A program made the position numbers and the translations under genes. Source: Rotaria magnacalcarata (lineage: Eukaryota). From it: DNA of 39,926 nt. This document shows positions 2,471 through 25,122 of this stretch, in pieces (position 1 is the first letter of the stretch; each line of letters opens with the position of its first letter). Location of the stretch: positions 1-39,926 of the forward strand of contig CBCSLL010001219.1 of assembly GCA_965140935.1 (NCBI GenBank). Reading direction: 5' to 3'. Under the pieces are notes generated by a model that worked only from the letters and a program-made list of their open reading frames with translations, was not told the origin of the DNA and did no database searches.

Positions 2471-3308
2471 CATATTTTCTGACGCTCTCACTCAGAGTTG
2501 ATGAAAATGGATCATGATAGACTTAGTAGGTGCGGAACCGATGTTCTATCGAATCGGAAATGTCTGAGTGAATTGGCGTTCAGAACGAACTTAACTAATA
2601 CTCCTCCCATTGTATCAGTGAAAAGAAATAGAGGCAGAGATACAAGCAAGCATACGTGTTGTATAATAACCATTCATGCATGATAATTGTCGCACCATTG
2701 ACTAATGTATGAATAGAAGACAGATATATCCATATGTACTCTTTTTACTTTTGATAATACCGAAACGAGAAAATACAGGAACCTTCAGACAAACGCACTA
2801 CTTTTCCTCGTACACGCGGCAATCATTACATTACCAATCAAACTGAGAAGAATAGACAGCACTATAAAGATTCAAGTATAAACTAGTTTTCTCTATGCGA
2901 GACCTGTTCAGGCGCTGTAAAGGTGGCGATTTCACTTATGTTTTTTCAGCGAAAGACTAGAAAGGTAGGTTATCTTTCTGTCGCCGTAATACCTAATAAG
3001 AGTAGAGTAGTCATGTAGCGGGGGTTAGAAAAGAAATCTTTTTCTACATTATACTTCTAGGCATTGATAATCTTCATTGTCATTTACAAGGGTGTTTCGA
3101 CTAGGAGAGCATGCGTTGGTTGAATAAAATTGGGATTTTCCATCTCAGAACATATTTGATTTTCTACAGCCAAATTGATTAAGCTTCTTTGTGCTCTATG
3201 CGGGGCCTCACACCCTTAACCATAGTTTCTTTCATGACACTCTTGACTGTATGAACAGACAATGAGAAATACAGAACTTCGGTGTTTGTATTGATGATGA
3301 AGTGAGGT

Positions 3309-3327
3309 GAGAGAGAGAGAGAGAGAG
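3309..3327. repeat. (GA)n microsatellite
   Basis: gagagagagagagagagag read directly. Confidence 0.9.
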
Positions 3328-4389
3328 CTAATCAAACATCAGACAAAATAATGTTTCACGTCTATAAATTTACAAGAGGAAACGAAATATCATTGAATAT
3401 TCCGTCCATCCTTAGTCCAATTAACATCAGAAAAAGTTACCTGGGACTCCACTCTATTCCATACGTCGTAGAAGTCAGGTCTATTATCGACTTCGAATTA
3501 AAGCTTTCCGTTCGTCTGCCGCCATATTAGTATCTCAAAAAGTTGCCGGAGCTGCTTCTGTTTAAACTACATGGGGTAAAAAAACTCCTTCATTTCTTTC
3601 TATCATATATTTGCAGATAATAATATTATGTATATGACAATAATACGGGAGACAAAGTTCTGGTCGCTTGTCATACATGAAACCTTCAAAGGATACGAGA
3701 TATCTTCGTTGTTCCTTGTCTGTTCGCAACAACGAAAATACAATAGAGTATAGCATTACATTTTTTACAAGGGCAACGAAATGTGATATGAGAGGTATCA
3801 TTTGAATAGTGTAAACTAAATACAAGTCGTATAGTGGTACTTACCGTTAAATAATGTCCAACGGTGATCGAAGTCGAAGAAGAATATGTGAAAGCGCTAG
3901 CTAAGAATGTGTGTGAAAGCGAAAAACGAAAGAAACAAGTGAGAAGTGTATCTTTTTATAATACTTCTATCGCTGTGATCACTGATGCATATATGGCTTT
4001 TCTTTCGTCTTAACGGAAAAAAGGAGTGATTTCGATAAAAGAACCCGCAAACAAGGTATTTTTCGCGTCGTACACGTAACGAACGCTATAGTACTTAATT
4101 GATAAAGATAAAAGAAGGAAGTCGCATTAATCACCTCCCTTGAATCTGAGAGACCCATTTCTTGGAGCGTAAATCCAGCTTCAAAGTTTTTCGAGTTTCA
4201 ATTTTTGCTTTCTTCTGTTTTATAAACTATTTGAAGGGTCCTCTATCTACCTGACATATTTGAAGGATCAATACATATCTATTAGAGTCAAAGAATCTAA
4301 AAAGACCATGTGACGAAAATCAATCAAAATGGCGAATTTTGTCGATTTTCGAAAAAAAACGTCGGGTTGTTCTTTCGAAAATGCTCAAT

Positions 4390-4420
4390 TAACGGGTGGG
4401 CCAGAATAAATGGCGGTCTC
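4390..4420. repeat. left TIR of the Tc1/mariner element
   Basis: See the element call; it pairs with 5669-5699. Confidence 0.8.
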
Positions 4421-4516
4421 CGCATTTCTTGAGTATTTTCGTCAATTCTCATATTTTCGAACTGAGCTTTTTTTGAACTAATCGTCTTTCGATTCTCTAC
4501 AAAAATAGTCTTTTTA

Positions 4517-5572
4517 TTATCTTAAATAGCTTCCTTTAACTTGAGACAATCGATACAATCGATTGGTCCAAGATGAACAAATTTCAAAAACAACATTGAG
4601 AGAAACTTTACGAACAGCACGTTTCACTTCGTTAATTAATGTCGTTTTAGATGTTACTGCGTCCCAGTTAACTTGATGTGCGAGTTTGTCCCATATGCAG
4701 TAATCTAATGGGTTCAAATCAGGACTGCTTGGAGGCCCATGATCTTTGTCGATGAAGCATGGAAAGTGCTTTGCACACCATTCTTGTGATTTCGCATGAA
4801 TGCGTGACTTTGCATCGTCCTGCTGAGAGGTCCAATCGGCTCCAAACGTATCATGACCAAACTTGAGAGCAACCGGTAGGACCTCCTTGATGTATTGATC
4901 ATGGTCTACTGTCCCGTCCTCGAAAATGACTAAAGGTGATACACCTTTAAAACAAACTGCGAGCCAAACCATTACTTTTTGCGGAAACTTACGTTTTTGC
5001 CGAATACCACCGTTGGTATCAGCAGCTAAAAGATTAACCGCCCATATTCGACCGTTTTGAGAACTATAAATTCCGTCAATGTCGAACATCTTCTCATCAG
5101 AAAACAAAATTTTCATTGTGTTTTATTTTCGGAAGTTTGTTCGTATCCAATTAGCAAACTTAATTCTTTTTTCTTTATGCTCATTAGTGAGCAATGGTTC
5201 GTTTTGTATTTTCTAGGCTCGCAGTCCTAGATCATTTTTGAGTATTCGTCGAGCACTGGTCCTAGAAATACTCAACTCACGAGCTACTTTTCGTGATGAG
5301 ACAGGTTTCCGGTACTCCAGCAGATTTTTTACCTTTTGTATGGCTCCTTTCGTTCGAATAATTCGGTGACACCCCGATGGACTAGACAGGTTGATTGAAC
5401 CGGTATCGCGTATGTTTTTGCACCATCTTTCGATTGTCCGAAGACCGATTAAACCATTGAGATCGCGAAAAATTTTTGTCGGCCCATCACCACTTTGATA
5501 CTTTGAAAGTACCAAATTTTGAAAATCTTTACTTTTCATGAACACAAGTAAATCCAATGAAATTGAATTCAT
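4517..5572 (-). pseudogene. Tc1/mariner transposase (~346 codons) interrupted by two in-frame stop codons
   Basis: The two ORFs (5213-5572 and 4517-5116) lie in the same frame. The ~24 codons between them, bounded by a TAG and a TAA, read KIQNEPLLTNEHKEKRIKFANWIRTNFRK, the usual linker between the HTH and catalytic domains. N-terminal paired-like HTH: ...LSISRTSARRILKNDLGL. Catalytic motifs: ILFSDEK (first D), WTSQQDD (second D) and SPDLNPLDY (third residue is D, not E). By my count there are ~37 residues between the last two, a DD37D-like, maT/mariner-type signature. Confidence 0.85.
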
Positions 5573-5668
5573 AGGGAACTACTCTGTCTTGTAGAGAATT
5601 GAAAGGCGATTTGTTAAAAAAAATTATCCGGAACGAATGAAAATTAATGAAAATATTTGAGAAATACA

Positions 5669-5699
5669 GAGACCGCCATTTATTCTGGCCCACTCGTTA
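5669..5699. repeat. right TIR of the Tc1/mariner element
   Basis: Reverse complement of 4390-4420 with one mismatch. Confidence 0.8.
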
Positions 5700-6843
5700 T
5701 TTACAGTGACTTCAACTCAACATGACGAAACTCTCTAAACTAATATCCGTTTCAAAATATAAGAGCGGTGGCTGATTTTTGAATTACTCTGCCTAGGAAC
5801 ATGATAGAAACCTGCCGTTTCAACCATAGATAGAGGAGATCTGACATCATAATTTCACATGGAAACGAGAGAAATTCTAGTATGTAAGGGAACCAATAGG
5901 TTCAACCCAAGGAACTTCGACATGGAGAAGATCCTCAAAAATTTTGAATTTCAAATTTTATTATCGGGTTGGGTAGAGCTTGCAAACTTGAGGCCATACC
6001 TAAATTTTCAGTCTGTTTGGTTGAACCATTCTTGAAATAGGGATACCTTACTTTTAGTGGTTGCACAGGCGATTTTTTACAATTTTCACTTAAAAAAATT
6101 TTCTTCCGATGACCATTTAAATCTGAAAGCATGTTCGATTCATCCTTTGTTTTATATAAATTAATAGAGCAAAATCTGCTCTACAAAACTATGTCACTTT
6201 TATTTGTTTTCAACTGATCCATGTGAACTACAAACTTGAGCATTATGAAAGACTATGCATTCCCATATCTGCTATCTCTGATTTGGTGTTTTAAAAATAT
6301 GTATCCTTGATTAAAATAGATCAGAAAGCTTTCTGTGTGAAAGTACCAAGGATAAACGAATAACTATATTTAGTTATTAGTTGTCTAAAATGCATAAAAT
6401 ATTTCATAAGAGACATTTTCCTAAATTGAATCGTTCACTGCTTTTTCGGCGAGAATCTTTTAGATGGTCTACTTCATTCTTTTTTTGTGATAGGCAGTTG
6501 ACACACTGTTTCTTTTCAAGTGGAATTCTAGGGCTAGTATAAGGAGAAAAGTATATCAGATCAAGTATACGAAAAGAAATCTTCTAAATATTAGGTTACA
6601 TATTAGCGGGAAAGAAGCAAACGCAAAGATCGACTAAATTACAGTATTATAAAATTATTTATGACCGAGTTTTTTTTCATTATATTTAGATGTCATCGAC
6701 AATGATACATATGATGATGAAGCTATTGATAATGATAACAACGACGAGGAACAGTTTCAAATTCAATCAGTTGAACATGCAAAAAATATGTACTCGTTAG
6801 CACACGAATTGATTATCAGTATCGTTTTGATAATCTCAATAGA

Positions 6844-9643
6844 ATGTGTTTATATGACTTTGTTAGCATATTCTATAAGAAAAAAATGAATTCTACAGAT
6901 CTGAAATATTTATCCAAGATAGCTGGATCAATAGAAGAAAAAATTAACCGAAAAGGTCGACCACCTAATGAACGATTTCTTTTTCAAAAGCAGCATCCTC
7001 AGGCTACAACCTATTTAATGATGAAGTACAGCGAATCTCATGTGCCTGTTCTCTATGGTCCTCAGATCCCTCGACAAGATCGTGATGATACTCGAGAACG
7101 ATATTGTCGGGCTATTCTCACACTTTTCGTACCCTGGCGTACTGTGACTGATATTTGTGACATCGGTCAGACATGGGAAGATACATTTAAATCTCGACAA
7201 CATCTTATTTTGAGACATTCATGGACGATAATAGAAAACATTCAACTTTTGCATGAATGCAAAAAGGACCGCGATGATCATTTACTTCAAGTTATCGCCG
7301 AAGCACAAACCGATAATAGCTTAGTCGATCCTGTACTAATACCGACTAATCAAGTCGATGGTGAATATGGCACTGATGACAGTGACGATTTAATTGAATT
7401 ATTAGGTAATTTGGATGAAAACACAGTTGCTATGCTCAATGCTACAAAAAACTCAACAGAAAACAGATATATTGAAGAAACAATCGAAGCAGTCAAGAAC
7501 GTCGGACGATTTAACAGTGTGAACAGTAAGTATTATTTGAATGTGATCTTTAGAATCGACAATAATCGTACAAAATTTGTTGTAGCATATGACCAATATT
7601 CTTTAAATGAACCGAGCGATCGTATCGATCAATCATTGGTACCATTTATTTCTGCAACACCTAATCTTGTTCGACTCAATGCAAAATGGCAAGAACAACT
7701 GAAAACTGAGAAAGAACAGATTAGAAGAGGTTTGATTACGGGCAACTTTGACAAAGACGATGATGGTATGTTGAACTTGGATGCTGCAAGAAGTGCCGTT
7801 GCCACTGTAGTGACTCTAAACAATATGAATATTAATACGAAGATATGCGAAAACTATGGTTCGATTCCTGCAGTAATATTAGTCAAAGCGAACTCTTGTA
7901 CTCAGAAGAGTGTTGCCGATGAATTTACACTGAACAGAGAACAACGGGCTGCATTTATGATCATAACAGGTCATCTTGATGGTGATAGCCGCTGTCGTAC
8001 AGGTAATCTTTATAATAGAAGTCATCACATATTGAAGTACATAATATTTTCAGGTGACAATAATGGTCAGCTTATAATGTGCATACCTGGATGTGGTGGT
8101 ACAGGCAAATCACAATTGATTCGTGCTCTTACCAAATACTTTTTAGTTACAAAGAGAATACAAATGATGCGGAAGTTAGCACCTACTGGTATTGCCGCTG
8201 CTGAAATCGATGGTATGACCATCCATTCGTTTTTGGGTGAACAGCGTAACTCAGGAAAGGCACGTACAATTAAACCAGGAGATTTAAAACTCGAGAAGGA
8301 ATGGGCCCTCGTTGAATACCTCTTAATTGATGAAATAAGTATGGTTGGTTTAACTCTACTTGCGAAACTCAACCGAATTATATGTGCTGCAAAACATACC
8401 GATCCTCAAGTTCCATTTGGTGGTGTAAATGTCATCTTCTTCGGCGATTATTTACAATATCGACCTGTATATGATGTACCTCTACATACAGATTTCACTT
8501 TGCCGGTCAAAAATAAATCAAACAAGATAGCAACTGAAAAACAAATTCAACAACGTGTTGCACGTTCTTTAATTCTTCAAATCAATTGTGTGGTCAAACT
8601 TACTCAACAGATGAGAACAGAAGATCTACGTTATCTTCAGCTACTCGAACGACTTCGTCATGAAGAATATGTAACTACGATGACTACGAATTATTGTTAA
8701 CACGAATAGTGGGGCAATCTTCCGTACCCTTGTTAAGTGATTCACCATGGAATAAAGTAAATTTGTTTTTCTAGATTTAGACAATTCACTATCTTCATCT
8801 TTTTAGGCTCCGATTCTTGTATTTCGTAACGAAATACGAACACAATTAAATCACAAGGCACTTAGTCACAAAGCACAACAAGTGGGACAGACACCTATAG
8901 TATGCATTGCCCAAGACACCTGCAAAGGCAAACTAATTGAAGATCGAGCACTTATTAAAAAATGATTAGAATTATCTGATAGTAAAACAGAGCATCTACC
9001 AGGTCTATTACCTCTTGTTCCTGGAATGCCTGTAATTTTAACGCAAAATATTGCAATTGAATTGGGTCTTATCAACGGTGTGAACGGAATCTTTCGGCAG
9101 CTTGTCTACCAGGAAGATTCCGTGTCAACTGATATTATTTCAGAAGAATTTTCCAAGAATGCACGATATGTCCATCGACCTCTGTACGCCTTGGTGGAAA
9201 TTAGCAAATCAACGATCGAATGCAATTTAGAACAACTTCAGCCAAAACTGATTCCAATACCGGTAATGGAACAAACATTTCGAGTCGATATAGGCGATAT
9301 GCTTCCAAAAGATAAGAAACCAAAATCAAATAGAAAAACACTGTTATCAATTAAACGGCGCGCATTACCACTTGTACCAGCTTATTGCATTACAACACAC
9401 AAGAGTCAAGGTCAAACATTGAATAAAGTTGTGATTGATTTAAAACTGCCAAATGAAACCGATGATATTGCTGCAGTCTATGTACCCTTATCGCGGGTAA
9501 AACGCTTAACTGATTTGTTTATTTTGCGATATTTTGATTACAAGGTGTTGTTAATTAAACCCAGCAAGTCACAACTGACAGAAATTGAACGACTCGATAA
9601 ACTATATTTAGAGACCCAAGCACGCTTTCCAGAATGGTTGTAA
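6844..9643 (+). pseudogene. PIF1-family (Helitron-type) DNA helicase, degenerate: one frameshift and one in-frame TGA
   Basis: ORF 6844-8700 carries Walker A (PGCGGTGKSQLIRAL), Walker B (LLIDEISMV), FGGVNVIFFGDYLQYRPV and QQMRTED motifs of PIF1/RecD-like SF1 helicases. After a frameshift, 8815-9025 reads ...QDTCKGKLIEDRALIKK*LELSDSKTEHLPGLLPLVPGMPVILTQN and is interrupted by a TGA. ORF 9026-9643 supplies the C-terminal helicase motifs (CITTHKSQGQTLNKVVIDL). I see no HUH Rep motif upstream. Confidence 0.8.
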
Positions 9644-10830
9644 CATCTTTTCTGCTTTGCATGAAAACTGCTCTAGTTTGTGTCAATTTTTATGTATATG
9701 ATTTTCTTTTCTATATTAGTTACTCTATGATCTATACATTTGACTATACTTTGTTGCTCGTATTGCATGTATTAGCTGTAGTCTCCTTTTTTTTATCGTC
9801 ATATGAAATGATATGCGAAATATTCAGGTACTACTTTTGTTCTATATATTCATCCCATATTCCTTTTTTTCATTATAAATTTAATATCTTTGTAATTCAT
9901 GATTAGTTATCGAATTTCACGAATAAACACACTCTGCTACAATACCATCTTATACTTCTAATTAAATCATTTTATGGTACTATGTGACTAGGATGGCCCA
10001 TAAATTCGACAATGAAATCATGTTTCATCTTAAGTACATTTTTAGCTAATATTTTGGTATACATGTGTTCTGGCTATACATTCGAACCAGCCCTGGAGAA
10101 CCATATCCACTTCTGATAATTGGAATCAACTTCTTTCAGTTCATTATTTGCCCCATAGAATAATATTTGTCTTGGCAAATGGCTTTATCAACTAACGCTA
10201 GTATGAATGGTCGCTGTATCATATTCTGAATAAGTTTGTGTTGACAGACACATTGTTTTCATATTAAAAATCTCAGAGCATTTCAAGATATTGTTGTGAC
10301 CATCGTGATATGAAAATCAGAATTTTATGATATATATCTTTGTAAGACTTTATCTAATCAAAATGTTAGCGCAACGTATCAATTTTATATCCAGATATTA
10401 CTATCATTTGAAGCTGCGGACGTTTTGAAAGTCAACTATAACATAATTGTGGTAGAGGAGATTCGGTACTTTGATATTGTTAAAGTTCTTCCGGGTAAGA
10501 TTGAATAATATATTCTTGCTTTAAACTCTTCAGTCGAGGGTTAAGCGAATCGCACAGCGACGAGCGTTACTTGTATTACTAGATTACGATAATCGAACTA
10601 TAAATGCTTCATATAACCGAAAATCAATTCGACTCCAGAATTTGAACGAGGAATAAAAAAGATGATTAAAACAGAAAATTGATCAAACGCAATTGATTTA
10701 TTATAGTAATGGGTTATAATTGTACCTAATTTCAGTGACAAAGCAGCGATCTGAAAATATTTCAAATTCAGAAATAATCAGAAACATGTTCAAAATTTAG
10801 AAATTTTCCCTGGTTTTCAGAAGATCTGAC

Positions 10831-11730: not shown

Positions 11731-11946
11731 TTAGTTATCGCCATGATCGATGCCGATAACTATACGTTGAATAAACATGTCCCATGATGAATCGCTCAAT
11801 TCTAATTGTTTACAATAGATACGATTACGTTGACTTATTTGTTGATAGAATCCGATCGCTTTGTCAAGTTTTTCACTTGTGTTAGCAGATAAATGATTGC
11901 AGAGAAAAGCCTTAGCAACATAAAGAGAGTAGGATATAAATTTCAA
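11731..11946 (-). CDS. exon-like segment resembling the vault-PARP (PARP4) C-terminal region
   Basis: KAIGFYQQISQ...CKQLELSDSSWDMFIQRIVIG resembles the human PARP4 C-terminal segment AFEAIKQASEW...RLELGNDWDSATKQLLG, from memory. I could not fit the splice phase to the upstream exon. Confidence 0.35.
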   Translation of the reverse strand: MKFISYSLYVAKAFLCNHLSANTSEKLDKAIGFYQQISQRNRIYCKQLELSDSSWDMFIQRIVIGIDHGDN

Positions 11947-11960
11947 AGATTGGAAAAAAT

Positions 11961-12096
11961 CAATTCACTTTGATTTGTTCAATGTTAAATAAAAATGGAC
12001 ACGTGTTTTGTGGTGAGTCTTGCATTTGAAGAGCGAGCCAAAACAGAATGACACCTGTACCAATTAAACGAAGAATTTCATTTTGTGTGTTCAAAG
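11961..12096 (-). CDS. exon (PARP4 C-terminal-like; ...SLG ALNTQNEILRLIGTGVILFWLALQMQD...)
   Basis: Acceptor ttttttttag at 12097-12098; 50-nt intron. Resembles PARP4 ...SLGVKGRECLLDLIATMLVLQFIRTRLE. The low-end boundary is uncertain. Confidence 0.45.
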
Positions 12097-12146
12097 CTAA
12101 AAAAAAATTAAAGGTCATATCTCTATAATAAATCTTACGATCTTAC

Positions 12147-12255
12147 CGAGCGAGTTAAAACCTAGTGCGCGTAAGTATTGTTCTAGGCCATCGAAAATAT
12201 CAACATTGACATGAAGTATATCAGCTAAATCTTTATTCAACGTAAATGAACCGTC
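12147..12255 (-). CDS. exon (DGSFTLNKDLADILHVNVDIFDGLEQYLRALGFNSL; the DGSW-type motif of the PARP4/VWA5A C-terminal region)
   Basis: Acceptor catag and donor gtaaga. 63-nt intron upstream, phase consistent. Confidence 0.5.
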
Positions 12256-12318
12256 CTATGTTCGAATCAAATGCAAAACAATGATTTGGTAATAAGACTT
12301 GAAAATAGTATCAATTAC

Positions 12319-12410
12319 CTCAGATTGAATTTTGATGAGCTCTTCAGTTAACGTTTTTGAAAATCGAACATTTTTCAGTTGAATGAGAAGTGGAGCACCA
12401 ATTGTTTGAC
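12319..12410 (-). CDS. exon (GQTIGAPLLIQLKNVRFSKTLTEELIKIQSE)
   Basis: Acceptor gaattcag and donor gtaatt. The reading phase matches the phase-1 end of the Hsp70-SBD exon at 12670. Confidence 0.45.
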
Positions 12411-12669
12411 CTGAATTCATACACCATTTTCGCTATATCTTTCAAACAACAACGAAGGACAAATTACCGAATGATGTTATAAGTTCACCGGAAAAGTCAC
12501 GTATTACAGATGTAATTTGGCCAGCCAGCTGAGAAAAACAGAAAAAGTGAACAATCGAACTATGAAAAGATGACATAATACGAACTAAATACAATCGATC
12601 ATTGGGTTTGTGATCATGAACTACAAAATAACAATAATTGAACATCATTTATCCTTTTTACACACTAAC

Positions 12670-12741
12670 CAGATTTAGCTGCAACATTTGCATCACTTTC
12701 TACATATGCAATATGTCGCTCAATATCATTTTTGCTCAATC
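12670..12741 (-). CDS. Hsp70-family substrate-binding-domain gene, exon 5 ([24 protein letters not shown])
   Basis: Matches Hsp70 GRLSKEEIERMV.EAEKYKAED. Donor GTTAGT at 12668-12669. Acceptor tatctag after the 58-nt intron 12742-12799. Confidence 0.7.
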
Positions 12742-12799
12742 CTAGATAAATATAAAAGGCATTTAGCGATGGTATGAAATATCTGAGTAATTGTCGAAC

Positions 12800-12968
12800 T
12801 TTGCTGATCAGATCCAAGAATAAACGAAGCTTTCGCGCCCGAACGTGCTTCTTCAGCATCGACATGAAGTATCCCATTAGCATCGATATCCATACGAATA
12901 GCTATTTCGAGTGTCTGAGCAGAGAAGTTGCTTGTTAGACCAGAAAGACTAAACTCGCCCAATAATCT
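12800..12968 (-). CDS. Hsp70-SBD gene, exon 4 ([11 protein letters not shown]...[37 protein letters not shown])
   Basis: Near-canonical Hsp70 SBD-beta: [50 protein letters not shown]. Exon length 169 = 56 codons + 1. Confidence 0.8.
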
Positions 12969-13022
12969 CTGCAATAGAGGACGATTAGAAAATAAAATTT
13001 ATGAAGTTAGAACACTATATAC

Positions 13023-13269
13023 ATTGTATTTTGTGAGATAATGTTCACCTTCAAATATTCGAATGGTAGCTGTTGTCTGATAGGCATAAGCATTTGTGAA
13101 TATAGGATAAAGTTGAGTTCGCGTTGGAATAACTGTATTACGGCGTACCAATGTATGCATCTCACCCTTAATATCTTCGATGCCCAGACCAAGTGGGCAT
13201 ACATCCAGAAGAAGTAGATTACAGACAGATATGTTGGACGTTAAATTAAGTGCAAATTGTCTTCGAAAT
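13023..13269 (-). CDS. Hsp70-SBD gene, exon 3 (FRRQFALNLTSNISVCNLLLLDVCPLGLGIEDIKGEMHTLVRRNTVIPTRTQLYPIFTNAYAYQTTATIRIFEGEHYLTKYN)
   Basis: LLLLDVCPLGLGIE matches the Hsp70 inter-domain linker plus SBD start, DLLLLDVAPLSLGIET. 54-nt intron 12969-13022 (gtatat..tgcag). Confidence 0.8.
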
Positions 13270-13372
13270 CTAAATTTTCATTTCGTTATCATTAAAAAGA
13301 AAGAGCCATCGATCGAAAATGACAATCAATAACGAATCATTGCATATCCTCGTCAAGCCTTTTAAAACTCAC

Positions 13373-13464
13373 GTCTCTAATTCTCTTGTCTGTTTACAAA
13401 TCGTGGATTTTGGTTGCGCACTTTCACGTGCAAAGTCTATCGTTCTATCGTCATATCGGTGCTC
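13373..13464 (-). CDS. Hsp70-SBD gene, exon 2 (EHRYDDRTIDFARESAQPKSTICKQTRELET); no Hsp70 ATPase motifs
   Basis: Donor GTGAGT. 103-nt intron 13270-13372 ending aatttag. Confidence 0.55.
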
Positions 13465-13512
13465 CTAAAATTGGATGATGTTTCTGTAAAACTTGCATTT
13501 TAATGTACGTAC

Positions 13513-13644
13513 TTTAGTGTATCGAACTGATTTTTTCGTTGACATATTCGCTTCTTCCGAGCTTTTTGATTCACTTGTAGCAACTTGTATGCTATCGTGT
13601 CTACCACCAAATGACGACATTTCTAAAGATGGTTCTATGTTCAT
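13513..13644 (-). CDS. Hsp70-SBD gene, putative first exon (MNIEPSLEMSSFGGRHDSIQVATSESKSSEEANMSTKKSVRYTK)
   Basis: ATG at 13642-13644 preceded by an in-frame TAA. Donor GTACGT, 48-nt intron 13465-13512, acceptor ttttag. No Hsp70 nucleotide-binding-domain motif (DLGGGTFD, GIDLGTT) found in any minus-strand frame up to ~14750. Confidence 0.5.
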
Positions 13645-14339
13645 GATCCATTAATTAAAGTAATCGAGAAATTTATGTGGTTCTAACTTACCAACACTTG
13701 GGTTCGGTTTTAATGCTATTGGAGATGGCATATAGCTGTCATTAGTGCAGGATGATAGTGTTCGACATGATATGTCTGGTGACAGTGGCTTGGGAAAAGA
13801 AAGAGAAGCCCATGCAGAAGTATCAGTGATAAGGCCGTAAAAATCGAATGGTTCTGCCAATTCAACGCCTAACATGGATAGCAAATCAGAACGTAGCATG
13901 TTTAACATGCACAGCTGACAACAAACTAATAAGGGTGCCGCACTTTGATAGCTCAATTTCTTACCATCGTTCTTTCTACTCCAGCAAAAGTATTTAAGAG
14001 AGTGCGAATGTAAGGGTAGATATACGTAACAGGAAGATTCACCGTTATTCACATTCATGTAAAGGTAATTTTCTGAACTTGTAAACTTCAGACTTTCGTT
14101 AGGGAAAGGTTAGCAATAATATGAATAAGAACACGAATATTACTTATCAGTGACAGTAGTCGAAACATAACATTTCTAACTTTTAATTACTTTTTGTAAA
14201 CTCGATGGAGTCTCAGTAACTCTGAATTTAAAATATCGGGCAAAAATCACTAAAACTCAATCAAATTCATAAATTGCTGTTTTCTTCTCGGAAATAAGTG
14301 TACAACATTCGGAACTCTTGATCGTATACAAACAACCTA

Positions 14340-14760
14340 TTATTCAAATCTTACTTGATTGTTTTGGAGGCGGTTCGAGTGATAGCCCTGATAGTGGCGC
14401 AGACAATGACCCTATAACGAATATAATGTAATAAGCTTGATAATAATGATGATCTTACCTCTCTTCTTCTTTCCTGCCAGTTTGTTATAAACAGTAGATA
14501 TTGGTACCGGTTGATCTTCTAATTTCGAAAATATATTAAGACCAGTCGGTTCTTTTAAGCGTTCATTTCCATTATCTAGAGTGGTCTTCCAAGTGGGAAA
14601 ATCATGACTCATCGGCGAAGGCCCACGAGTGTCTGTAAACCGAAGCGAAGGTAAATCGCCACTGAAACTATTGCCATCGCCAGCGTCAGTGCCCTTGCCC
14701 TTATCTGAATCAGCCTTTTCATATTCCTCTAATGATTCTTGTTGCAAACCACTTATTTTC
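14340..14760 (-). other. exon-like open segments (Ser/Gly/Pro-rich) bounded by GT/AG sites; gene unassigned
   Basis: ...LAGKKKR|gtaaga...ttatag|GSLSAPLSGLSLEPPPKQS|gtaaga. No family recognised. Confidence 0.25.
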
Positions 14761-15089
14761 GATCGGAATTCTGGTAGTTGCCATGCTAAAAAATACTACT
14801 GTCTAGAGAAGTGACACATAAAGTATTCATTTTTAATAAAAAACCAAACCATTACATCAAATTAATTACTCTTCCTCGCTGACTACAGCTGCAATAAACT
14901 ATAAAACATTATCACAGATACTCCAGTGCTAAATTAAATGTCTACATCATGCCAATCTACAAATCTCATATGTCAAAAAACAATTCGATATAAGAATAAT
15001 CCATATATGTCCCTGAAAAAATAGTTGAAGCTGATATTTTGAATATATTATCATGCTAAAAGTATATTTGTAAAAAGCCCACAATGGTT

Positions 15090-16709: not shown

Positions 16710-17522
16710 TGCTCACACAAAAATGAAGTGGTTTTGGCACATTTGGACCCGTTTTCTACTAGAAATATTGAGTTCATTTTCTACAGTAAAAGTGCACAAT
16801 TCGTACGTGATTCGTTGACCCCTACGAAGTTTTGTGGACAATATTATTATGAAATGAAAATCCTATCAATTAATTGTTTACTATCAGTTTAATCTCTGAT
16901 AAAAATTTCTGGCCATTCCTTCTTACTCTTTTTGCTATATCACGAGACAGAAGAAAAACAGCATGGGTTTTTAATTGATTCTGAAAGTCTGGGAGATAAG
17001 CTACAAAATCATATGTTTTTCAATTATTTTAGCAATGAATTTTGATTACTAGTGTACTCTAAGTTCAGTTAAACCTAATTTCTAGTATTTGTATTGGATT
17101 ATCTGGGAGATTCTGATCATAAAAGGTGGCACGTCCATCAAAATTAATTACAGATTTGGAATCAGCGTTGTCAGTTATCTAGTTCAGTATATCTTTCATA
17201 CTTCCGTTTTAAAATGTTTTTTTTTCGTCGGATATTGACATGAGGAAGCTCAAAAACGAGAATTCTTTTAAAACACAATCTTCCATTATGATTATGATCT
17301 CCATCGTCTCCATGAATTCCATCTCTGATCAAGAATTCGTTTTGTGTGGTAAATTCCTCTCTCTTTCAATCTGTATCTTGACGAAAAATGCATATTGTTT
17401 TCTTCTCTCTTGAGATATTGCAAAAAAAGAGTAAGAAGGAATGACCAGAAAGCTTTATCACAGATTGAACTGATAGTAAACGGGTCCAAATGTGTCAAAA
17501 CCACTTCATTTTGGTGTGAACA
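16710..17522. mobile_element. ~0.8-kb non-autonomous TIR element (MITE-like) inside the calmodulin intron
   Basis: 16710-16762 tgctcacacaaaaatgaagtggttttggcacatttggacccgttt pairs with revcomp of 17471-17522, tgttcacaccaaaatgaagtggttttgacacatttggacccgttt. That is a ~45-bp TIR with 3 mismatches. No coding capacity between the TIRs. Confidence 0.65.
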
Positions 17523-17637
17523 GAATTGGTATAAAATTCTGCATCACATAAACCATGAATTGATGAAAACTGCCAATAACCCAAAGTCCACCGTTGTGGG
17601 CCACCATTCTGTACTATTTGATTGGTTAAAAACTTAC

Positions 17638-18062: not shown

Positions 18063-18822
18063 TTCCTATTTGATTTATTATGCTTATAGTCCGGAAGACC
18101 TTGTATCAGCAAGGAATCAATAGATCTCTTAAAAGAAGTTGATTGTTTCTCTATAGAGACATGTTGTGAAGTCTCTTCTTTCGAAATACATACATCTTGT
18201 ATTTATATCAATCAAAGCCATCCTTTTCTTAATAAACTGTTCCTTTTTCCCTTTCAAATATTTACACCAGTTTTGAGAAAAACCATCAGATTTTTATATA
18301 AGATTACCCTGAATAAAGCTCAATTTTGCTTTTAATCACTAAATCATGTTACTTCACAGATCAATAATTACATCTAAGCACTATCAATGCTGCCTTTTAT
18401 TTAATATTATCCTGAAACATGTGTATTTTGTAGCGAAAGATTTATCTGACGTCAATATAGATTCTTTGTTGATTTTGGCACCACCCACGAATCGCCCGCA
18501 GTTTGATGTTTTGTGCTCTATTGTTTACCATACTCTTTCTACAACAACGGCTTAGCATCGGAATCAATATCAACTCAGCTGCATAAAGTATTTTGGAGAT
18601 ACGTTTACTGCGAACGAAAGACCCTTATAGGAAAATTTGTTTGCCAGTCAAGGTGTAGCTGTGGTGATGATCCCTCTTTCACTCACGCACCTTTATCTTC
18701 ATGTTATCTGTAGTTGGAAATTGGTTTTAAGGTATTGTTGAGAGGTTTTATGTTGCTGTTGATATAAATAATTCATCAATAAAATCGGGTGCTCATCATC
18801 ATTGTATAACTAGCTTTCTTAC

Positions 18823-18884
18823 CTTATCCATTTGTTCAACTGTTGTTAAATCCTTGGAATCAGCTCCAAGCATACGAATCAAAT
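18823..18884 (-). CDS. candidate upstream exon (DLIRMLGADSKDLTTVEQMDK), phase-compatible with the calmodulin exon at 17863
   Basis: Acceptor ttttcatag and donor gtaaga; phase 0 at the donor. Assignment to the calmodulin-like gene is inferred only. Confidence 0.3.
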
Positions 18885-19287
18885 CTATGAAAATGAAATA
18901 TAAACATTTCTCTGAAAACCACCTACACGTTTTCAACGCGGTATTCATTGTGATGATCTTAACATGTTCTACTCAGTATAGGTCGGGGTTTAAATTTAGA
19001 CTATATAATTCTTTCAAAACATCCAAGTGGTTCCATTTAATGTCACTTCACCGAAGCTTTCTACCACCGTTTCCGAAGTAGAATGACCGAGTTTCCTTCT
19101 TACCATCGTATTTAATTAATGATCCGCTGCAAGAGAAAGGATACACGAAATAATTTTTAAATGTTTCTTTCCTTTCTTTCACTTACAATTCGTCATTTGT
19201 GATTATTAAATTGTTCGCTAGACATTGTTGCTGTAATGCTTGCCGTTCTTCTACGGTTGCACTAATCATTTCGGTCATTATATCTAT

Positions 19288-22200
19288 TCATTTTTTAAAT
19301 TCGATATATGTAGATTTTGGTCCTAGATCAATTAGCATACCCTTTTGCATTTTATCTTTTAGTTCATCTGCTTTATCGTAATCATTCAATGAATGTCGAT
19401 ATGTGCGTATGATAGCCATCATGATAGCAAATTTCGCATCACCACCTGCTCGATAGGAAACTTTTTGACAAAGTTTTTCAATATCAACAATTGTTTCTTT
19501 TTTGCCCTGAATCGATGCACATTCCAGTGAAATACGCGCATCGGCCAATTTCTGTTTGATTGAAGTCAAATTTGAAACATCACCATCCCATCCCATGCAT
19601 GGTAGTAAGTCAACATCGCGTTCCAGCATAACTTCAAGCAAACGAACACCTATAACAGAGAGTACATGTTTCAATAGTGATGTAGATACTTCAATTTTGG
19701 TGCTAGTAAGATTTTTGATCCATAGTGTAAGAAACATACAGATAAATTTTTGCTTTTCTGCTATTATTTTACTAACCTGGTTGAACAGTTTTTATATCCG
19801 TGTTGACATCACGTTCTTCGATGGCAACAAAACTAGTGTATTTACTGACAACAGAATGTTTGATGCTGAGATCGATGAGATCTCGTTTGTATTGAACTTT
19901 GATCAATTCGTTTTCGCTCTCGTCGACATCCAATAGCCCGTTGTCATAATCATCAATAATCGCTCGAGTGGTTAGACAGTGTAAAATACGTCCTCTGGTC
20001 GTTGTCATTGCACTACTAAATACAGTCGTAACAAATTCTTGTTCGTCAATAGTAGCCGCCAATGTTGCCTTGTGACAATTTTCTATGAATCGATAAACAG
20101 TAAGTCGCATTCCATTGAACAAAGATCGAATCATTTTCGGTGCTTGCATATTGAGTTTTTGCTCTTTATTCAAACAGCCATGCCAGTCGATTGATATATT
20201 TGTAACACACGGTTGTCGAATCTGTTCGAGGATGTTAAATACTTTTGTTTTCCACTTCGATCGATAGTTTGAATCGAATACTATTGTTAGACCACCTCCA
20301 TTTGCTCCATTAGCTAACTGTTTCAAAACATGTTTGTTTGCAACGTTACCAATTGAGCATGTAAACAAACGATCACGACGCATAGTTGGTCGATGTTTGA
20401 GTAGAGCCAGAATTGAATTGAGGTCGTGAATATGTCCATCGGATAAAAGAACGATTTGACGGCCAAATTTCGACGATAACGACGATCGTAATAACGAATA
20501 ACGTTGAAGGACAGCAAATAGATCCGTATTACCACGATGGACACGTGAATGCTAGAATTTATGAAAACGGATATTTCAATAGAAAAATCAGATTCAAAAA
20601 AATAAACTACTAACTAGAACAAAGTGTTTGGCTTTATCGAGATTTTCTTTTGTAGTTGGTGCTGACATAGGAAAACATTCATCGTTATCTAAATAGTTGC
20701 AATTTCAATAGTAAAATAAATGTAGATCCTAATACTATATGTACTTCAAAAAGTAACTAGGCTGATTACGATGACCCAGCCTAATTATCTAGACTGATCA
20801 TTTTTTTAGCCCGTAAAATTCTCTATCGAACGGTATATATCACGTCGCATGGGTCAAGGCGATCCATTAGATCTTCGTGACTGTGCAAAATCTTGTAATA
20901 TTTAGGTGCCTGTTTCTGAATCTCAGAAACCAAGCTGAGATAGCTTACCTTTGTGTATGACTTAATATACTTCACTATAATATTTCAATTGATTTTCATA
21001 ATATAGTACTAGAGGACCAAAAAGTGCGTCCACGTAACCTGGATAGGCCAATGTTCCCATAGAGAAAACGAAGGCAATAATGACATTTTTTAGTATAACT
21101 CACTGCGAATCATTGTCATCCTCGAACTTGCTCGAAATATTGATGAGACGATTCTGTGTGCGAAATTTCATCAAAATCAAATGATATTTTGAAAGAGTTA
21201 TAGTGTTTTGAATGCGCAATAACGCTGTAGAATATCATCTTATTACCTGATCCAAAAGTAATTACATTAAAATATGTATTCTCATCTTCAACTTTCAAAT
21301 TCGTAAGAAACAAATGAGCTAACTGTTTAGCTTGCTGTACGTGACTGCCATCCATTGAATTTGATAGATCAACAATGAAAATAATTTCAACTTGTTCTTT
21401 CGAAGTCGTCAATGTTTCGAATCGTGGATAAAAGGTAAGCATACATGTTTGAGATTGATGGCTGTTCGATGTGTCAGTTGTTTCACTGTTGTCATCCAAT
21501 GGCAATGTTTCATTTGCTATTCGCGGTAAATTAGGACTGTTGAGTGTGATCGAAAGAATAAAATCTTGATCAATTAAGACATTATCAACAAGTTCAATCA
21601 TAGCTATACAATCGGTTACTTTCCGACGTAGATGATGTGTTGGGGAAAATAATTTCGTTATTTTATAGGGCATTCGAATCGATGCTTTGAAACTGAATTC
21701 AACTTTTTCATCGACAATACCGATAGATCGTAAAATCGATTGATCTTTGGTTTCGACAGCTTTTTTCGATTGCCATGAAGTCATTTTGGTTGGAAGGCGA
21801 AAAATAATGTCATCATTTTCGATTTCTAATTCGGCAACATAAATTATTTTGATGATAACTTCAGTATGCGCTGGCAAATTACCAACCGCAACGCTGAACA
21901 CTTGAGCTTCTTCTTGATGCATTAAATAGGCGCCATGACCCTTTTCAATTGCTTCTCTATACTCGCGTTTGGCTTGTTCTTTCTCTTTAACGACACCTTT
22001 GATAACTTTATTGTTAATATGTGCTTCGAAACCGCATACAGTTGAATTTTCATCAAGAGGAAACACATACTTAGCTTCGATAGGTATCGAACTTGTATTA
22101 TGATAGACTTGATAGAGAACAACCTTTTCATTTGATAGAAACATGAGGAATTAGTATTTTACTTCAATCGAAACGTAGATATAATTACTTCAACTGTAAC

Positions 22201-24696
22201 ATCAACAATTTGAGCACGAATATGAAATGATTTAAGTGGTACAAGGTCTCTCGATGATGAACATATCAAACCATAGTCTTGTTCGGCTACTTCAATGATT
22301 TCATCCTCCATCGTTAATGGAACTTCAGCTAGAATATTTTGAGAAAAATTTAGTCAATTGTTTATTCCAACAAGAAATCATAGCTTATCATTACCGTGCT
22401 CACTTAATTTCAATGCATGTTCTTGATGGTGAACAATAGGTAATCGTTCTAAAGTGATACTGAGAGCATCAATCGGCGACCATGAAACTTCCACAACATA
22501 AAGTAAACGTTGTTGTTCAACTTGATAGATGGCATATTCATTATCCTATTTCGATCGAACACAAAGTAGATTTGTGAAATAGTATCATAATTAATAAATC
22601 CTTCTAGCATTTCACTTACAGTGAACTTTGATTGATTTTCTTCTGTTTGTTTGACTCCATGTGTACTATGAAAACCATCAGGAGGTTTGGTGAGAGTCGG
22701 CGAAAACAAATAATAATTGGCTGATTCACCAAGTGCTACTTGACAAATGCATAACAAACGACGACCTGGCCGTATTCTACTTGCTGTCGTATATTTCAAA
22801 GACGTCGAAGCAGAATCTGAAAAATAGATCCCATAACCGAGACAACCCACGTCAGTACGTTCAACGCCCAATTGCTCCACTACAATTTTAGGCATGACTA
22901 AACCACTAAACGTACGCACAACCGCCATATAAATGTTGTCTAGAGAACGAAATGAGTATTTTACCGTGAAAGAATCCCAAGAAAATTGACATATTTCGAT
23001 CCATGAAACAGCTGCCATTGGTGGGAGAGTGTTGTACGAAAATTGAGTGCATCTGTCTGTCTAGTCACACTGAATATGTTGTGAATTAAAATTTCTTCAC
23101 CACTAATAAACAAAAAACAATCATTATGAAATAGAATGTTAAATTCTCTCGCCTATTAGTCGACGACTGAATGAGCTTAGCAATATTCTTAAAGTCGAAT
23201 GTTGAACTCGCTACTGTTTCAATATGACATTTCAATGCTCGATATTTAGCTTCGATTGGTGCTTTAACATTCCAATTGGTCAGTTCGTTGACTGTATGCA
23301 TATCTCGAAGCATCTGAACGGGGAAAAGATCAAGTAAAACAATTTAAAACAAGATTGACATACCTGACATAGGTCTATTTTTTCGATCAACGCTCGATGA
23401 TTCTTGATTAGATCAATATTGTACTCTGGTCGATGTGGTATAAGTGAATAGAAACGAAGTGCAGCAGCAGGATTGTTGGTCGCTTTGAGTTCGAGTAGTG
23501 CAGCTTCGGCCTCAATGATCTATTTGGATGTTTAGAACACACAGTAATATGAAAGTGTACACATACTGTTTTGAGAGTAATCGATTCAGGTGATATGCTC
23601 AAAATTTTATTCAGATCACCAATCGATTCTAGCCAAATCGATTCAATCAATTGACATACATTTTCATCGAGTATTTGTGTGTCGATACGTTGTGTAAATA
23701 AAGACTAGAAACAATTTCTTTTATGTGTAAAAACTAAATTATATTCTTTTATCAATGTCATTTGCATACACGTAATAATAATTTTGATCCTAATTTGTTA
23801 GGTAACATCTCACTAATTCGTGTTATACGTGGCATTGCAGCCACACGATAATAGTACGACGCAAACAACTGTTGTTGTTCGTTTGGATCATCACTGAATG
23901 CGTATTGTACCAATACTTTTTTATCGTGTTGTGAAACTTCGTCGGTAATAGTCTGTTTTTCATATCGAAATCGTAGTTGATAATCACTCGTTGTTCGATC
24001 ATAGTACTCTTCGGGAATAACTTGAAGTTCAAGAACAAAAAATACACTTGAATTATCATTGGTTTCCTGTTATGAACAATAGAAATATAAGAGAATAACA
24101 GCTAGAAATGAATACAAATCTACTTTGAAAATCGCCCATCTGCCAAGCTCACAATGTGCCAGCTCATCGAAACGAGGCAAATTTACATCGTCCGAATTCC
24201 ACAGTTTGATTTTAGTCAAATCAAATCTATTGGTTTTAGTCACGTTTGTTCGAGTTTCTAATGAACATCTAATACCTCCCATGGAAATAGTGCCAGTTTT
24301 TACAAAATTTTCTTGGTCTTCTGCTGACTTGATAATAAATTTGCTAATATCAATAGGTGTTTGACCAGGTCGCAAACAACGACATTTGTGTACATATTCA
24401 ACATTCACTACCGGTAAGCCAAGCCGTTTGGCACGACGTATTTTGTAGCTATCTACATTAGTCGTAGTTAGAACATAATCAGTCTAAAAGAAAGGTAACT
24501 CCAACCACATGTTTGATGAAATAACACGCGAACATACACTGGCTGTCAAAATATACGAAATATGTGCTTGCTGTTCTCGTAAATAATTGATCAATTCTTG
24601 CTTAGCTTTGAAACCTATTTCATGGCCAAGTTCGAGTACAATGTTTTTGCCATTGAATGGTGATAATAATGAAGTAGAGGTAGTAGCTGGTTTCAT
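19288..24696 (-). CDS. multi-exon PARP4-like (vault poly-ADP-ribose polymerase-like) gene: BRCT-like N-terminus, PARP catalytic domain, VIT, VWA, and a long C-terminal region
   Basis: All domains are collinear on the minus strand; see the sub-features. Exon/intron boundaries are not fully resolved. Confidence 0.75.
19772..20570 (-). CDS. PARP4-like gene, VWA C-terminal half and post-VWA region
   Basis: RQIVLLSDGHI (TDG-type MIDAS motif) ... ANGGGLTIVFDS. Then LSIKHSVVSKYTSFVAIEER, typical of VIT-VWA proteins. Confidence 0.7.
21116..22144 (-). CDS. PARP4-like gene, VIT domain plus start of VWA domain
   Basis: VIT: SSIPIEAKYVFPLDENSTVCGFEAHINNKVIKGVVKEKEQAKREYREAIEKGHGAYL. VWA MIDAS: EIIFIVDLSNSMDG. 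The VIT start exon (VPLKSFHIRAQIVDVTVE) is at 22200-22330. Confidence 0.85.
   Translation of the reverse strand: MFLSNEKVVLYQVYHNTSSIPIEAKYVFPLDENSTVCGFEAHINNKVIKGVVKEKEQAKREYREAIEKGHGAYLMHQEEAQVFSVAVGNLPAHTEVIIKIIYVAELEIENDDIIFRLPTKMTSWQSKKAVETKDQSILRSIGIVDEKVEFSFKASIRMPYKITKLFSPTHHLRRKVTDCIAMIELVDNVLIDQDFILSITLNSPNLPRIANETLPLDDNSETTDTSNSHQSQTCMLTFYPRFETLTTSKEQVEIIFIVDLSNSMDGSHVQQAKQLAHLFLTNLKVEDENTYFNVITFGSGNKMIFYSVIAHSKHYNSFKISFDFDEISHTESSHQYFEQVRG
22449..23018 (-). CDS. PARP4-like gene, PARP catalytic-domain exon
   Basis: GYGIYFSDSASTSLKYT...RRLLCICQVALGESANYYLF...DGFHSTHGVKQTE...INYDTISQIYFVFD aligns with the PARP signature GKGIYFAD..SKSANYC...LLLGEVALG...NEYIVYD. The upstream alpha-helical regulatory region is at 23086-23650 (ALRFYSLIPHRPEY). 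Confidence 0.8.
   Translation of the reverse strand: MAAVSWIEICQFSWDSFTVKYSFRSLDNIYMAVVRTFSGLVMPKIVVEQLGVERTDVGCLGYGIYFSDSASTSLKYTTASRIRPGRRLLCICQVALGESANYYLFSPTLTKPPDGFHSTHGVKQTEENQSKFTVSEMLEGFINYDTISQIYFVFDRNRIMNMPSIKLNNNVYFMLWKFHGRRLMLSVSL
24484..24696 (-). CDS. PARP4-like gene, N-terminal BRCT-like exon
   Basis: SPFNGKNIVLELGHEIGFKAKQELINYLREQQAHISYILTA has a BRCT-like pattern. Weak. Confidence 0.45.
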   Translation of the reverse strand: MKPATTSTSLLSPFNGKNIVLELGHEIGFKAKQELINYLREQQAHISYILTASVCSRVISSNMWLELPFF

Positions 24697-25122
24697 CTGA
24701 AAATAATCAATGATTTATGAATCAATCTACGAACGTATCCATTTTATATGATCGATTTTCAATAGAATCGTGTGATAACTAATGTGGTTACGCGTTACTT
24801 CATGCAAAGGAAAAGAGAAAAAAACAAGGAGTAGACAAATGTTGTTCATATATTTCTTTTCAGTTCTGCACGTTGAGTTATTGCACAAGCTGCTGAAATA
24901 GTCGGTATACCATGGAAATTTTCATACTTCATGAAGCTCAACATTAATGCATTTTATTATGAACGTCGTCGCTAATTGTCCCATATCATGAAAACCAGAA
25001 GAATGTGAATCTTAATGTAGCGCTTAAACAACTATAAAGATATAGTTGTTAGGTGGCCATGAAAATAAAAGGTTTTCAGAAAACATTTTCTTCTTTCAAA
25101 CTTTGTAGAGCTCTCTTTGTCG

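Follow-up and report, generated by a model that had tools for sequence, protein, structure and literature searches.

Human PARP4 has the domain order BRCT-WGR-HD-ART-VIT-vWA-disordered region-MVP-ID/MINT (PDB 9bw6, 9bw7, and 11jf). Its C-terminal MVP-interaction domain, delimited as MINT (residues 1562-1724; PMC12280208) or as MVPID (residues 1570-1724; PMC10450202), docks on MVP repeats 3-5, and proteins fused to MINT are carried into the vault lumen (PMC12280208). A domain derived from Hsp70 is absent from human PARP4 (PMC10450202), and surveys of PARP4 domain variation report 14-3-3, actin, and ubiquitin-related additions in other taxa, with Hsp70 unmentioned (PMC4245714). Here we analyze a stretch of 39,926 nucleotides (nt) from the bdelloid rotifer Rotaria magnacalcarata (contig CBCSLL010001219.1, positions 1 to 39,926 of the forward strand; hereafter the window), in which minus-strand exons encode an Hsp70 substrate-binding domain (SBD) without its nucleotide-binding domain (NBD), spliced in frame to a MINT domain. 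We propose, at a probability of about 0.7, that this feature is the C-terminal module of a bdelloid vault PARP (PARP4) paralogue which, through its SBD and MINT, would serve as a vault-anchored, ATP-independent peptide binder. What is new is a PARP4 with an embedded NBD-less Hsp70 SBD and, at the window locus, calmodulin (CaM) exons in addition. We found no publication on a rotifer PARP4 that bears an Hsp70 SBD; the combination exists only as automatic database domain labels.

The order of catalytic, VIT-vWA, disordered, and C-terminal helical domains is the same in human and bdelloid PARP4. In the latter, however, SBD-beta lies ~45 residues before MINT, the linker at the window locus also has CaM exons, and three of the four residues that contact MVP in the human protein are substituted. 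With canonical Hsp70 (HSPA8, BiP, and DnaK) the rotifer module shares LLLLDV, the eight-stranded SBD-beta with its pocket/arch residues, and helix A, at 32-50% identity; unlike canonical Hsp70, it has no NBD, helices B-E, or EEVD, which would leave it with no ATP cycle and no NBD for control by J-proteins or nucleotide-exchange factors, while its family carries an invariant loop (FTNAYAYQTTA) and a 2-residue insertion. An isolated SBD-beta with linker is likewise found in the lid-truncated or NBD-less Hsp70 SBD constructs (PDB 7a4u of BiP and 1ckr of Hsc70). Such constructs bind peptides nucleotide-free and self-associate linker-in-cleft (PMC3696110), but they are laboratory truncations, whereas the rotifer version is naturally encoded. 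Engineered MINT/INT-tagged vault cargo has the same topology, with a functional domain N-terminal to the PARP4 MINT (PMC12280208); in contrast to these artificial fusions, that of the rotifer arose naturally, dates far back within bdelloids, and belongs to PARP4 itself, and its vault localization is putative.

The refined 3′ module comprised 14 GT-AG exons and 614 codons with no internal stop, as listed in the order of transcription (P and L numbers denote homologous predicted proteins and loci, respectively):

14459..14785, minus strand: exon N1, disordered linker with the RFTDTR motif (open reading frame [ORF], GT-AG sites, and homology to the N-termini of P0001 and P0004)
14355..14387, minus strand: exon N2, GLSLEPPPKQS (matches PSLEPPTKQSSK of P0001)
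13692..13868, minus strand: exon N3, ..SPIALKPNPSV with a GTAAGT donor (homologous to P0001 residues ~157-215)
13513..13634, minus strand: exon E1, following the acceptor AG at 13636-13635; this model places the ATG at 13644 in an intron
13373..13464, minus strand: exon E2, pre-SBD linker
13023..13269, minus strand: exon E3, Hsp70 interdomain linker LLLLDV and first half of SBD-beta, including the family-invariant FTNAYAYQTTATIRIFEGEH loop (Pfam HSP70, PDB SBD matches, and DnaK/Hsc70 alignment)
12800..12968, minus strand: exon E4, second half of SBD-beta (same evidence as E3)
12670..12741, minus strand: exon E5, lid helix A of 24 residues with a phase-1 GTTAGT donor (DnaK/Hsc70 alignment)
12586..12620, minus strand: micro-exon E6a, VHDHKPNDRLYL (linker SVYDRKPNDPLYL conserved in all paralogues; splice sites kept in L002)
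12468..12528, minus strand: micro-exon E6b, LAGQITSVIRDFSGELITSF (homologues; the R. socialis model P0318 begins ELITSFGQTIGAP)
12319..12410, minus strand: exon E7, start of the MVP-interaction (MINT/MVP-ID) domain (profile match to human PARP4 1575-1702, E-value 2.6e-9)
12147..12255, minus strand: exon E8, MINT (DGSFTLNKDLADILHV..GFNSL; PARP4 sequence and profile matches)
11969..12096, minus strand: exon E9, MINT (ALNTQNEILRLIGTGVILFWL..; PARP4 sequence and profile matches)
11731..11910, minus strand: exon E10, end of MINT (..YCKQLELSDSSWDMF..; profile match), with the stop TAA at 11733-11731 conserved in L002

The Hsp70 portion was identified by several searches. Pfam HSP70 (PF00012) matched the window protein with an E-value of 1.9e-27, and this match was restricted to profile positions 376-519 of 599, which correspond to the interdomain linker, SBD-beta, and first lid helix. 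A PDB search with the family profile matched the SBDs of BiP, Hsc70, and DnaK at ~1e-38. When three full-length Hsp70s were used as tblastn queries, they aligned to the window solely via residues ~360-523, and they detected no NBD/ATPase domain anywhere in the 39.9 kb; an NBD was also found in no member of the SBD-MINT family. The interdomain linker of the window reads NLLLLDVCPLGLGIE, in agreement with the Hsp70 pattern (D/E)LLLLDV, and is conserved family-wide. The lid beyond helix A and the EEVD tail were not found in the window, where the sequence runs on into the family linker and MINT. The Hsp70 fragment is, in sum, LLLLDV, SBD-beta, and helix A, without the ATPase domain, the rest of the lid, or EEVD. 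Alignment to DnaK and Hsc70 sequences indicated that the pocket/arch positions F426, A429, Q433, and I438 (DnaK numbering) are kept in the window SBD, with the equivalents of the first three invariant across the SBD-MINT family. The sequence has the features of an SBD-beta sandwich with a cleft, and is predicted to bind peptide; the AlphaFold model of a homologue from R. sordida (P0003) displays eight strands and a helix, a disordered stretch, and then eight helices, with the MINT helices at a predicted local distance difference test (pLDDT) score of 75-92. Foldseek analysis of this model returned Hsp70 SBDs only (DnaK and BiP) in its top 50 and added no evidence for MINT; a lid-truncated BiP with linker-in-cleft oligomers (PDB 7a4u) was among the top fold matches. 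A first-pass annotation of the sequence had already placed the linker and SBD-beta on minus-strand exons separated by introns of 48, 103, 54, and 58 nt, had seen no NBD upstream, and had assigned a phase-1 GTTAGT donor to the last SBD exon. Each of these points was confirmed, while one peptide that it quoted was misread (12 residues, not the 11 given).

Similarity of the downstream exons to PARP4, also proposed in that annotation, held in a profile search. Exons 12410-11731 used as a single query had human PARP4 residues 1574-1641 as their sole PDB match (E-value 0.005), and a profile of 13 rotifer homologues extended this match to residues 1575-1702 (E-value 2.6e-9). Pfam PF26156 (PARP4_MVP-ID) was precomputed on homologous proteins; neither the window protein nor the 13 family members matched it in our local copy of Pfam, where the model seems to be absent. 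The MINT fold and a C-x-x-LEL motif are conserved in the rotifer family. Judged by these profile matches, the downstream exons are true homologues of the human vault-docking domain of PARP4, and the in-frame splicing of an NBD-less SBD to a PARP4 C-terminal domain represents a conserved protein architecture and not a chance juxtaposition.

The gene model was refined by use of homologues. The window has a GC content of ~35%, and introns in these models are mostly ~50-60 nt. At the 5′ end of the module, the acceptor of exon N1 (14787-14786) is in phase 1, and a second acceptor, conserved with L002, starts the exon at 14728 (..EEYEKADSD..). The ATG at 13644, previously taken as the start, was set aside, as ATGAACATAG holds the acceptor AG of a 57-nt intron and homologous in-frame exons continue upstream to ~14785. 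The SBD-to-MINT junction 12669->12410 of the first-pass annotation is in frame and is used by the gene model P0010, but it passes over the conserved micro-exons at 12620-12586 and 12528-12468. Homologues read ...AAKSVYDRKPNDPLYLLDGQ..NFSGE...S.GQT.. across the region of this proposed 259-nt intron, and the micro-exons encode the corresponding family-conserved linker (SVYDRKPNDPLYLLDGQ...FSGE...). The introns around them measure 49, 57, and 57 nt and are all GT-AG and in phase; with the micro-exons included, all introns in that model measure 49-63 nt. Furthermore, the 12468->12410 junction is the one found in P0318, a partial R. socialis protein with 100% identity to the window. As the micro-exons total 96 nt, a junction that skips both (as in P0010) stays in frame, and E6a and E6b may be skipped in some transcripts. 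Read-through of the GTTAGT donor, which would end the module at ..AAKSG followed by a stop and leave a separate MINT gene of 205 residues from an ATG at 12576, was rejected because every paralogue retains the linker at this position and the junctions keep the phase. Similarly, SLEEYEKAD (14735) was considered as a copy of the PARP4 sequence SLNDYDKAD (19380) and dismissed since P0004 shows ordinary linker at this position. Errors were observed in the database models as well: the R. magnacalcarata P0001 model (L002 14924-17390) leaves out the conserved TAA stop in favor of a spurious exon far away, and P0002 bears an unrelated C-terminal extension. For this family, neither end of the bdelloid annotations is reliable.

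The SBD and MINT were found together well beyond the window. HSP70 and PF26156 co-occur, with no NBD, in about 25 predicted proteins of R. magnacalcarata, R. sordida, R. socialis, Rotaria sp. Silwood1 and Silwood2, Adineta steineri, A. ricciae, and Didymodactylos carnosus. When 1.84 billion representative proteins were searched with a profile, 150 matches were listed, among which every named protein spanning the MINT positions is bdelloid, a few short MINT-only fragments are unnamed, and the long non-bdelloid proteins are ordinary or merged Hsp70s. Among the matches listed, the SBD+MINT combination thus appears to be restricted to bdelloid rotifers. Two loci of Adineta reveal what precedes the module: (i) in A. 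steineri (L007), BRCT, PARP, VIT, vWA, and post-vWA segments (3286-8042) are followed by linker and then by the SBD-MINT model, with the two annotated genes meeting at a 10-N scaffold gap (9885-9894) that shifts the frame, which is open on both sides; and (ii) A. ricciae (L001) has the post-vWA region, linker, SBD, and MINT packed into 3.2 kb, and the ORF stays open up to the end of the contig. At the R. magnacalcarata locus L006, P0013 is preceded on its own strand by a PARP4 5′ part. P0008 and P0014 align at their N-termini with the post-vWA region of the window PARP4 (19647-19187), and the exons upstream of the SBD are homologous to PARP4 linker (RFTDTR motif). In bdelloid PARP4, BRCT-PARP-VIT-vWA is followed by a long disordered linker, the Hsp70 fragment, a conserved ~45-residue linker, and an eight-helix MINT. 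Because the modules of A. steineri and A. ricciae are continuous with PARP4, it was PARP4 that gained the SBD, which reverses the direction of capture first proposed. The Hsp70 SBD was, on this comparative evidence, inserted into PARP4 early in bdelloid evolution, and the gene then expanded into paralogues. R. sordida P0007 was examined as a potential stand-alone module; it has no PARP4 5′ part within 10 kb, yet a linker-type motif occurs 4.9 kb upstream, and this candidate was not retained.

The linkers of these proteins displayed additional sequence features. Repeated acidic motifs, (D/E)n-DMGFxLF(D/G), closely resemble the tail of the ribosomal P-stalk (..DDDMGFGLFD) and were located in L007 (~8300-9000, plus strand), L003 (2061 and 2551, plus strand), L004/L005 (5110, plus strand), and L006 (6102, plus strand), as well as in the proteins P0005 (residue 22) and P0129 (residue 369); none was found in the window copy. 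FG-type low-complexity repeats and poly-proline were detected in the N-terminal linkers of P0169 (residues ~60-400), P0313 (residues 1-480), and L007 (~9300-9990), with the repeats (..SFGGSNVASS.., ..MQLFGAQQAQ.., and ..SFGASPFGG..) reminiscent of the FG repeats of nucleoporins.

At the window locus, the sequence upstream of the module holds a PARP4 5′ part and CaM exons:

18823..24714, minus strand: PARP4 5′ module, with BRCT-like, PARP catalytic, VIT, and vWA domains, post-vWA helical region, and start of the linker (Pfam PARP/VIT/VWA; homology to P0008, P0014, and P0121)
17863-17767, 17715-17638, 16430-16289, and 16236-16157, minus strand: four calmodulin exons (A to D) with three intact EF-hands

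The last exons of the PARP4 5′ module are 19287-19187, 19126-19104, and 18884-18823 (..TTVEQMDK followed by gtaaga). An end of the PARP4 gene at ..NDEL and its stop (19186) was rejected, as the donor at this position (TT followed by GTAAGT, phase 2) leads on to the micro-exon 19126-19104 and exon 18884-18823. The "full" PARP4-like gene reported nearby on the same strand by the first-pass annotation is present as a PARP/VIT/vWA gene upstream, but no MINT domain of its own was found for it in the window. The fourth EF-hand of CaM is cut at ..READIDG by a phase-1 GTAAGA donor, and the canonical last exon, needed for a four-EF-hand protein of ~149 residues ending in ..DGDGQVNYEEFVxMMxxK, was not found in the window. 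The phases allow this donor to be joined to exon N1 and the phase-0 donor at 18822 to CaM exon A, so that a single ORF without stops can be built from the PARP4 tail, CaM exons, and 3′ module. Taken at face value, this arrangement identifies the window module as the C-terminus of the upstream PARP4 gene, now parted from it by CaM exons. The module is most likely expressed through the CaM exons and would be made either as PARP4-CaM-SBD-MINT or as a CaM-SBD-MINT chimera. Synteny with L002 breaks at window 16852, within the 1.2-kb intron between CaM exons B and C, and a 112-nt segment of this intron (17474-17585) matches L002 in inverted orientation.

Comparison with the R. MAGNACALCARATA copy L002, which aligns to window 16852-11647 at 88-92% identity, was used to examine selection. 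The ratio of nonsynonymous to synonymous substitution rates (dN/dS) was 0.22 for the SBD (binomial P-value 2e-4), 0.20 for CaM exons C and D, 0.42 for the linker, 0.81 for the N-terminal region, and 0.47 overall. All five exonic indels were multiples of 3 (129 and 6 nt in N1, 102 nt in N2, 6 nt in N3, and 30 nt in E1), the small intronic indels amounted to 1-2 gap columns per intron in total, and 13 of 13 introns were GT-AG in both the window and L002. These patterns point to the 3′ module being constrained coding sequence. Across window 11731-13634, exon divergence slightly exceeded that of the short introns, and dS (0.14) was likewise above intron divergence, for which constrained short introns or gene conversion are possible causes.

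A mechanism can be proposed for the module. MINT would anchor the protein to MVP repeats 3-5 on the inner face of the vault wall, as in human PARP4, and SBD-beta, ~45 residues from MINT, would sit at this wall. Since an SBD without NBD and lid is expected to bind in an ATP-free manner with fast exchange, it could act as an ATP-independent clamp for extended hydrophobic segments. The candidate ligands include (i) luminal client or cargo proteins; (ii) the long disordered linker of the protein itself; and (iii) LLLLDV of a neighboring copy, which would chain copies along the vault wall. Hsp70 is known to oligomerize via linker-SBD contacts (PMC3696110), and A. vaga has MVP genes whose expression, like that of many PARPs, is raised by radiation and rehydration (PMC10809525). 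The sequence data show the domain identities, gene structure, conservation, purifying selection, and limitation to bdelloids, whereas vault docking, peptide binding, and the 5′ end of the transcript are inferred. A broader and doubtful extension is that the bdelloid vault is a protein-holding compartment, in which vault PARPs and detached CaM-SBD-MINT proteins would line the inner wall with ATP-independent Hsp70 clamps, hold unfolded or specific clients beside an ADP-ribosyltransferase, and thereby aid desiccation and radiation tolerance.

A number of observations weigh against the vault-anchored peptide binder. With regard to its two domains, the SBD part of the P0003 model is of low confidence; a D. 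carnosus paralogue (P0313 / P0182) has its SBD cut to approximately the first four strands (..LVLLSDVAQSSIGVETVDKEMACVLRRNAEIPSRQIRDSFTNAYGYQHTGIIKIFE) and continues directly into MINT, so the SBD is dispensable in some copies; the dN/dS of MINT against L002 (0.46) is not significantly below 1 (P-value 0.06); and the positions of the human MVP contacts S1614, K1618, Q1682, and R1689 are occupied by S, N, R, and Q, respectively, such that one of four is kept (PMC12280208) and MVP binding by the rotifer MINT remains putative. With regard to the gene, no conserved start codon was found for the 3′ module; exons diverge slightly more than short introns from L002 (7.7% versus 5.8%); L002 continues beyond window 16852 into unrelated genes, with no PARP4 5′ part within 10 kb, and the SBD-MINT module can hence exist detached; the one-ORF assembly needs introns of 959, 1207, and ~1400 nt, compared with the usual 48-103 nt in these models; and the homologous proteins are gene predictions, several of which are visibly wrong at their ends (e.g., the C-terminus of P0001 and P0010 without the micro-exons). 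Finally, window 18690-18822 (minus strand), ~120 nt of ancestral linker that is colinear without indels with the PARP4 linker of Rotaria sp. Silwood2 (P0121 ..IRKLCTMLGEAPDFTDELF..), contains five in-frame stops (TGA TGA TGA, TAA, and TAA), while the same stretch is still open in P0121. Aligned in this way, the former coding linker looks to be non-coding in the window, and the PARP4 part may end there. The suggestion of a rearranged fragment cluster in the first-pass annotation is half borne out, by these stops and by the CaM exons between the PARP4 5′ part and the module.

These observations were weighed against other explanations of the locus. A real, if minority, possibility is gene fission after the arrival of CaM, which would leave a truncated PARP4 that no longer reaches the vault and a separate CaM(-lobe)-linker-SBD-MINT protein, i.e., a calcium-sensing, vault-docked peptide binder without PARP activity; this differs from the PARP4-module reading solely in the transcript and protein made at the window locus. 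The stops lie right after 18823, an ATG (..AACATGAAGATAAAG followed by gt, 18702) could open a CaM-first ORF in phase with CaM exon A, and R. magnacalcarata L002 consists of CaM exons C and D with SBD-MINT and no PARP4 5′ part, yet is intact and constrained; the P0001 gene model is exactly such a CaM-SBD-MINT chimera. Nonetheless, the strong GTAAGA donor at 18822 and the acceptor of CaM exon A are both in phase 0, making a PARP4-CaM splice equally possible, and the Silwood2 model P0121 links the PARP4 post-vWA region to CaM exons. It is rather unlikely that the module is expressed with an SBD that has lost client-peptide binding and serves as a structural spacer or self-association unit, the cleft binding LLLLDV of a neighbor, or with a MINT-like domain that has been re-targeted away from MVP. 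Self-association would be in keeping with the strong conservation of LLLLDV in the absence of its usual partner NBD, with the crystallization of lid-truncated BiP as linker-in-cleft oligomers (PDB 7a4u), and with Hsp70 linker-SBD oligomerization (PMC3696110); the substrate-pocket residues, however, are invariant family-wide, which fits a conserved ligand without saying which. Re-targeting would agree with the three of four MVP-contact residues that differ, but not as readily with the conserved MINT fold and C-x-x-LEL.

Decay of the module was also considered, in which a rearrangement broke a PARP4 paralogue and left SBD-MINT as a transcriptionally dead or decaying remnant, so recently that it still looks intact. 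The lack of its own start codon, the N-terminal dN/dS of 0.81, exon divergence that is not below intron divergence, the large indels of the N-terminal exons, and the likely redundancy among many bdelloid PARP4 paralogues are compatible with a relic. We regard it as improbable in view of the SBD dN/dS of 0.22 (P-value 2e-4), 614 stop-free codons in AT-rich sequence, indels that preserve the frame in five of five cases, 13 of 13 GT-AG introns in both copies, and persistence of the same arrangement in at least three Rotaria lineages. Least credible, and in our view very nearly excluded, is the origin put forward by the first-pass annotation, that an SBD-only chaperone-like gene derived from an Hsp70 paralogue captured a duplicated 3′ end of the neighboring PARP4. 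An NBD-less SBD does adjoin PARP4-like exons 6 kb from a same-strand PARP4 gene; however, the window holds one PARP4 3′ end and the upstream gene has none to copy, full-length PARP4 loci of Adineta and Didymodactylos contain the SBD-linker-MINT order, and the exons upstream of the SBD are homologous to PARP4 linker (RFTDTR).

Other genes of the window are of separate interest. An intronless ORF of 618 residues (6844-8700, plus strand) with PIF1-like helicase / AAA_19 / AAA_30 matches is followed by an ORF of 205 residues (9026-9643, plus strand) with no Pfam match, and the two may belong to a Helitron-type transposon. Horizontally acquired genes are common in bdelloids, and an intronless glycosyltransferase ORF of 358 residues (27304-28380, plus strand; EryCIII-like_C / UDPGT) is a candidate for such acquisition. 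The exact glycosyltransferase protein was also found in the Logan assembly of run ERR2135451, where it adjoins a Glyco_transf_28 ORF.

To our knowledge, vault function and cargo selection are long-standing open questions, and PARP4 is the sole vault enzyme, with its targets unknown. The placement of an Hsp70 peptide-binding domain beside a vault-docking domain suggests that the vault lumen may hold extended polypeptides, and the rotifer module is in effect a "MINT-tagged binder" already made by nature. In the chaperone field, purifying selection on Hsp70 SBDs that lack both NBD and lid is unusual. For annotation, gene predictors routinely split bdelloid PARP4 genes in the disordered linker, hiding this architecture. 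The vault-clamp reading, if true, would provide vaults with a natural cargo-receptor mechanism, the first to be described. The architecture may, furthermore, bear on the stress tolerance of bdelloids, in which MVP and many PARPs are induced after desiccation or irradiation (PMC10809525).

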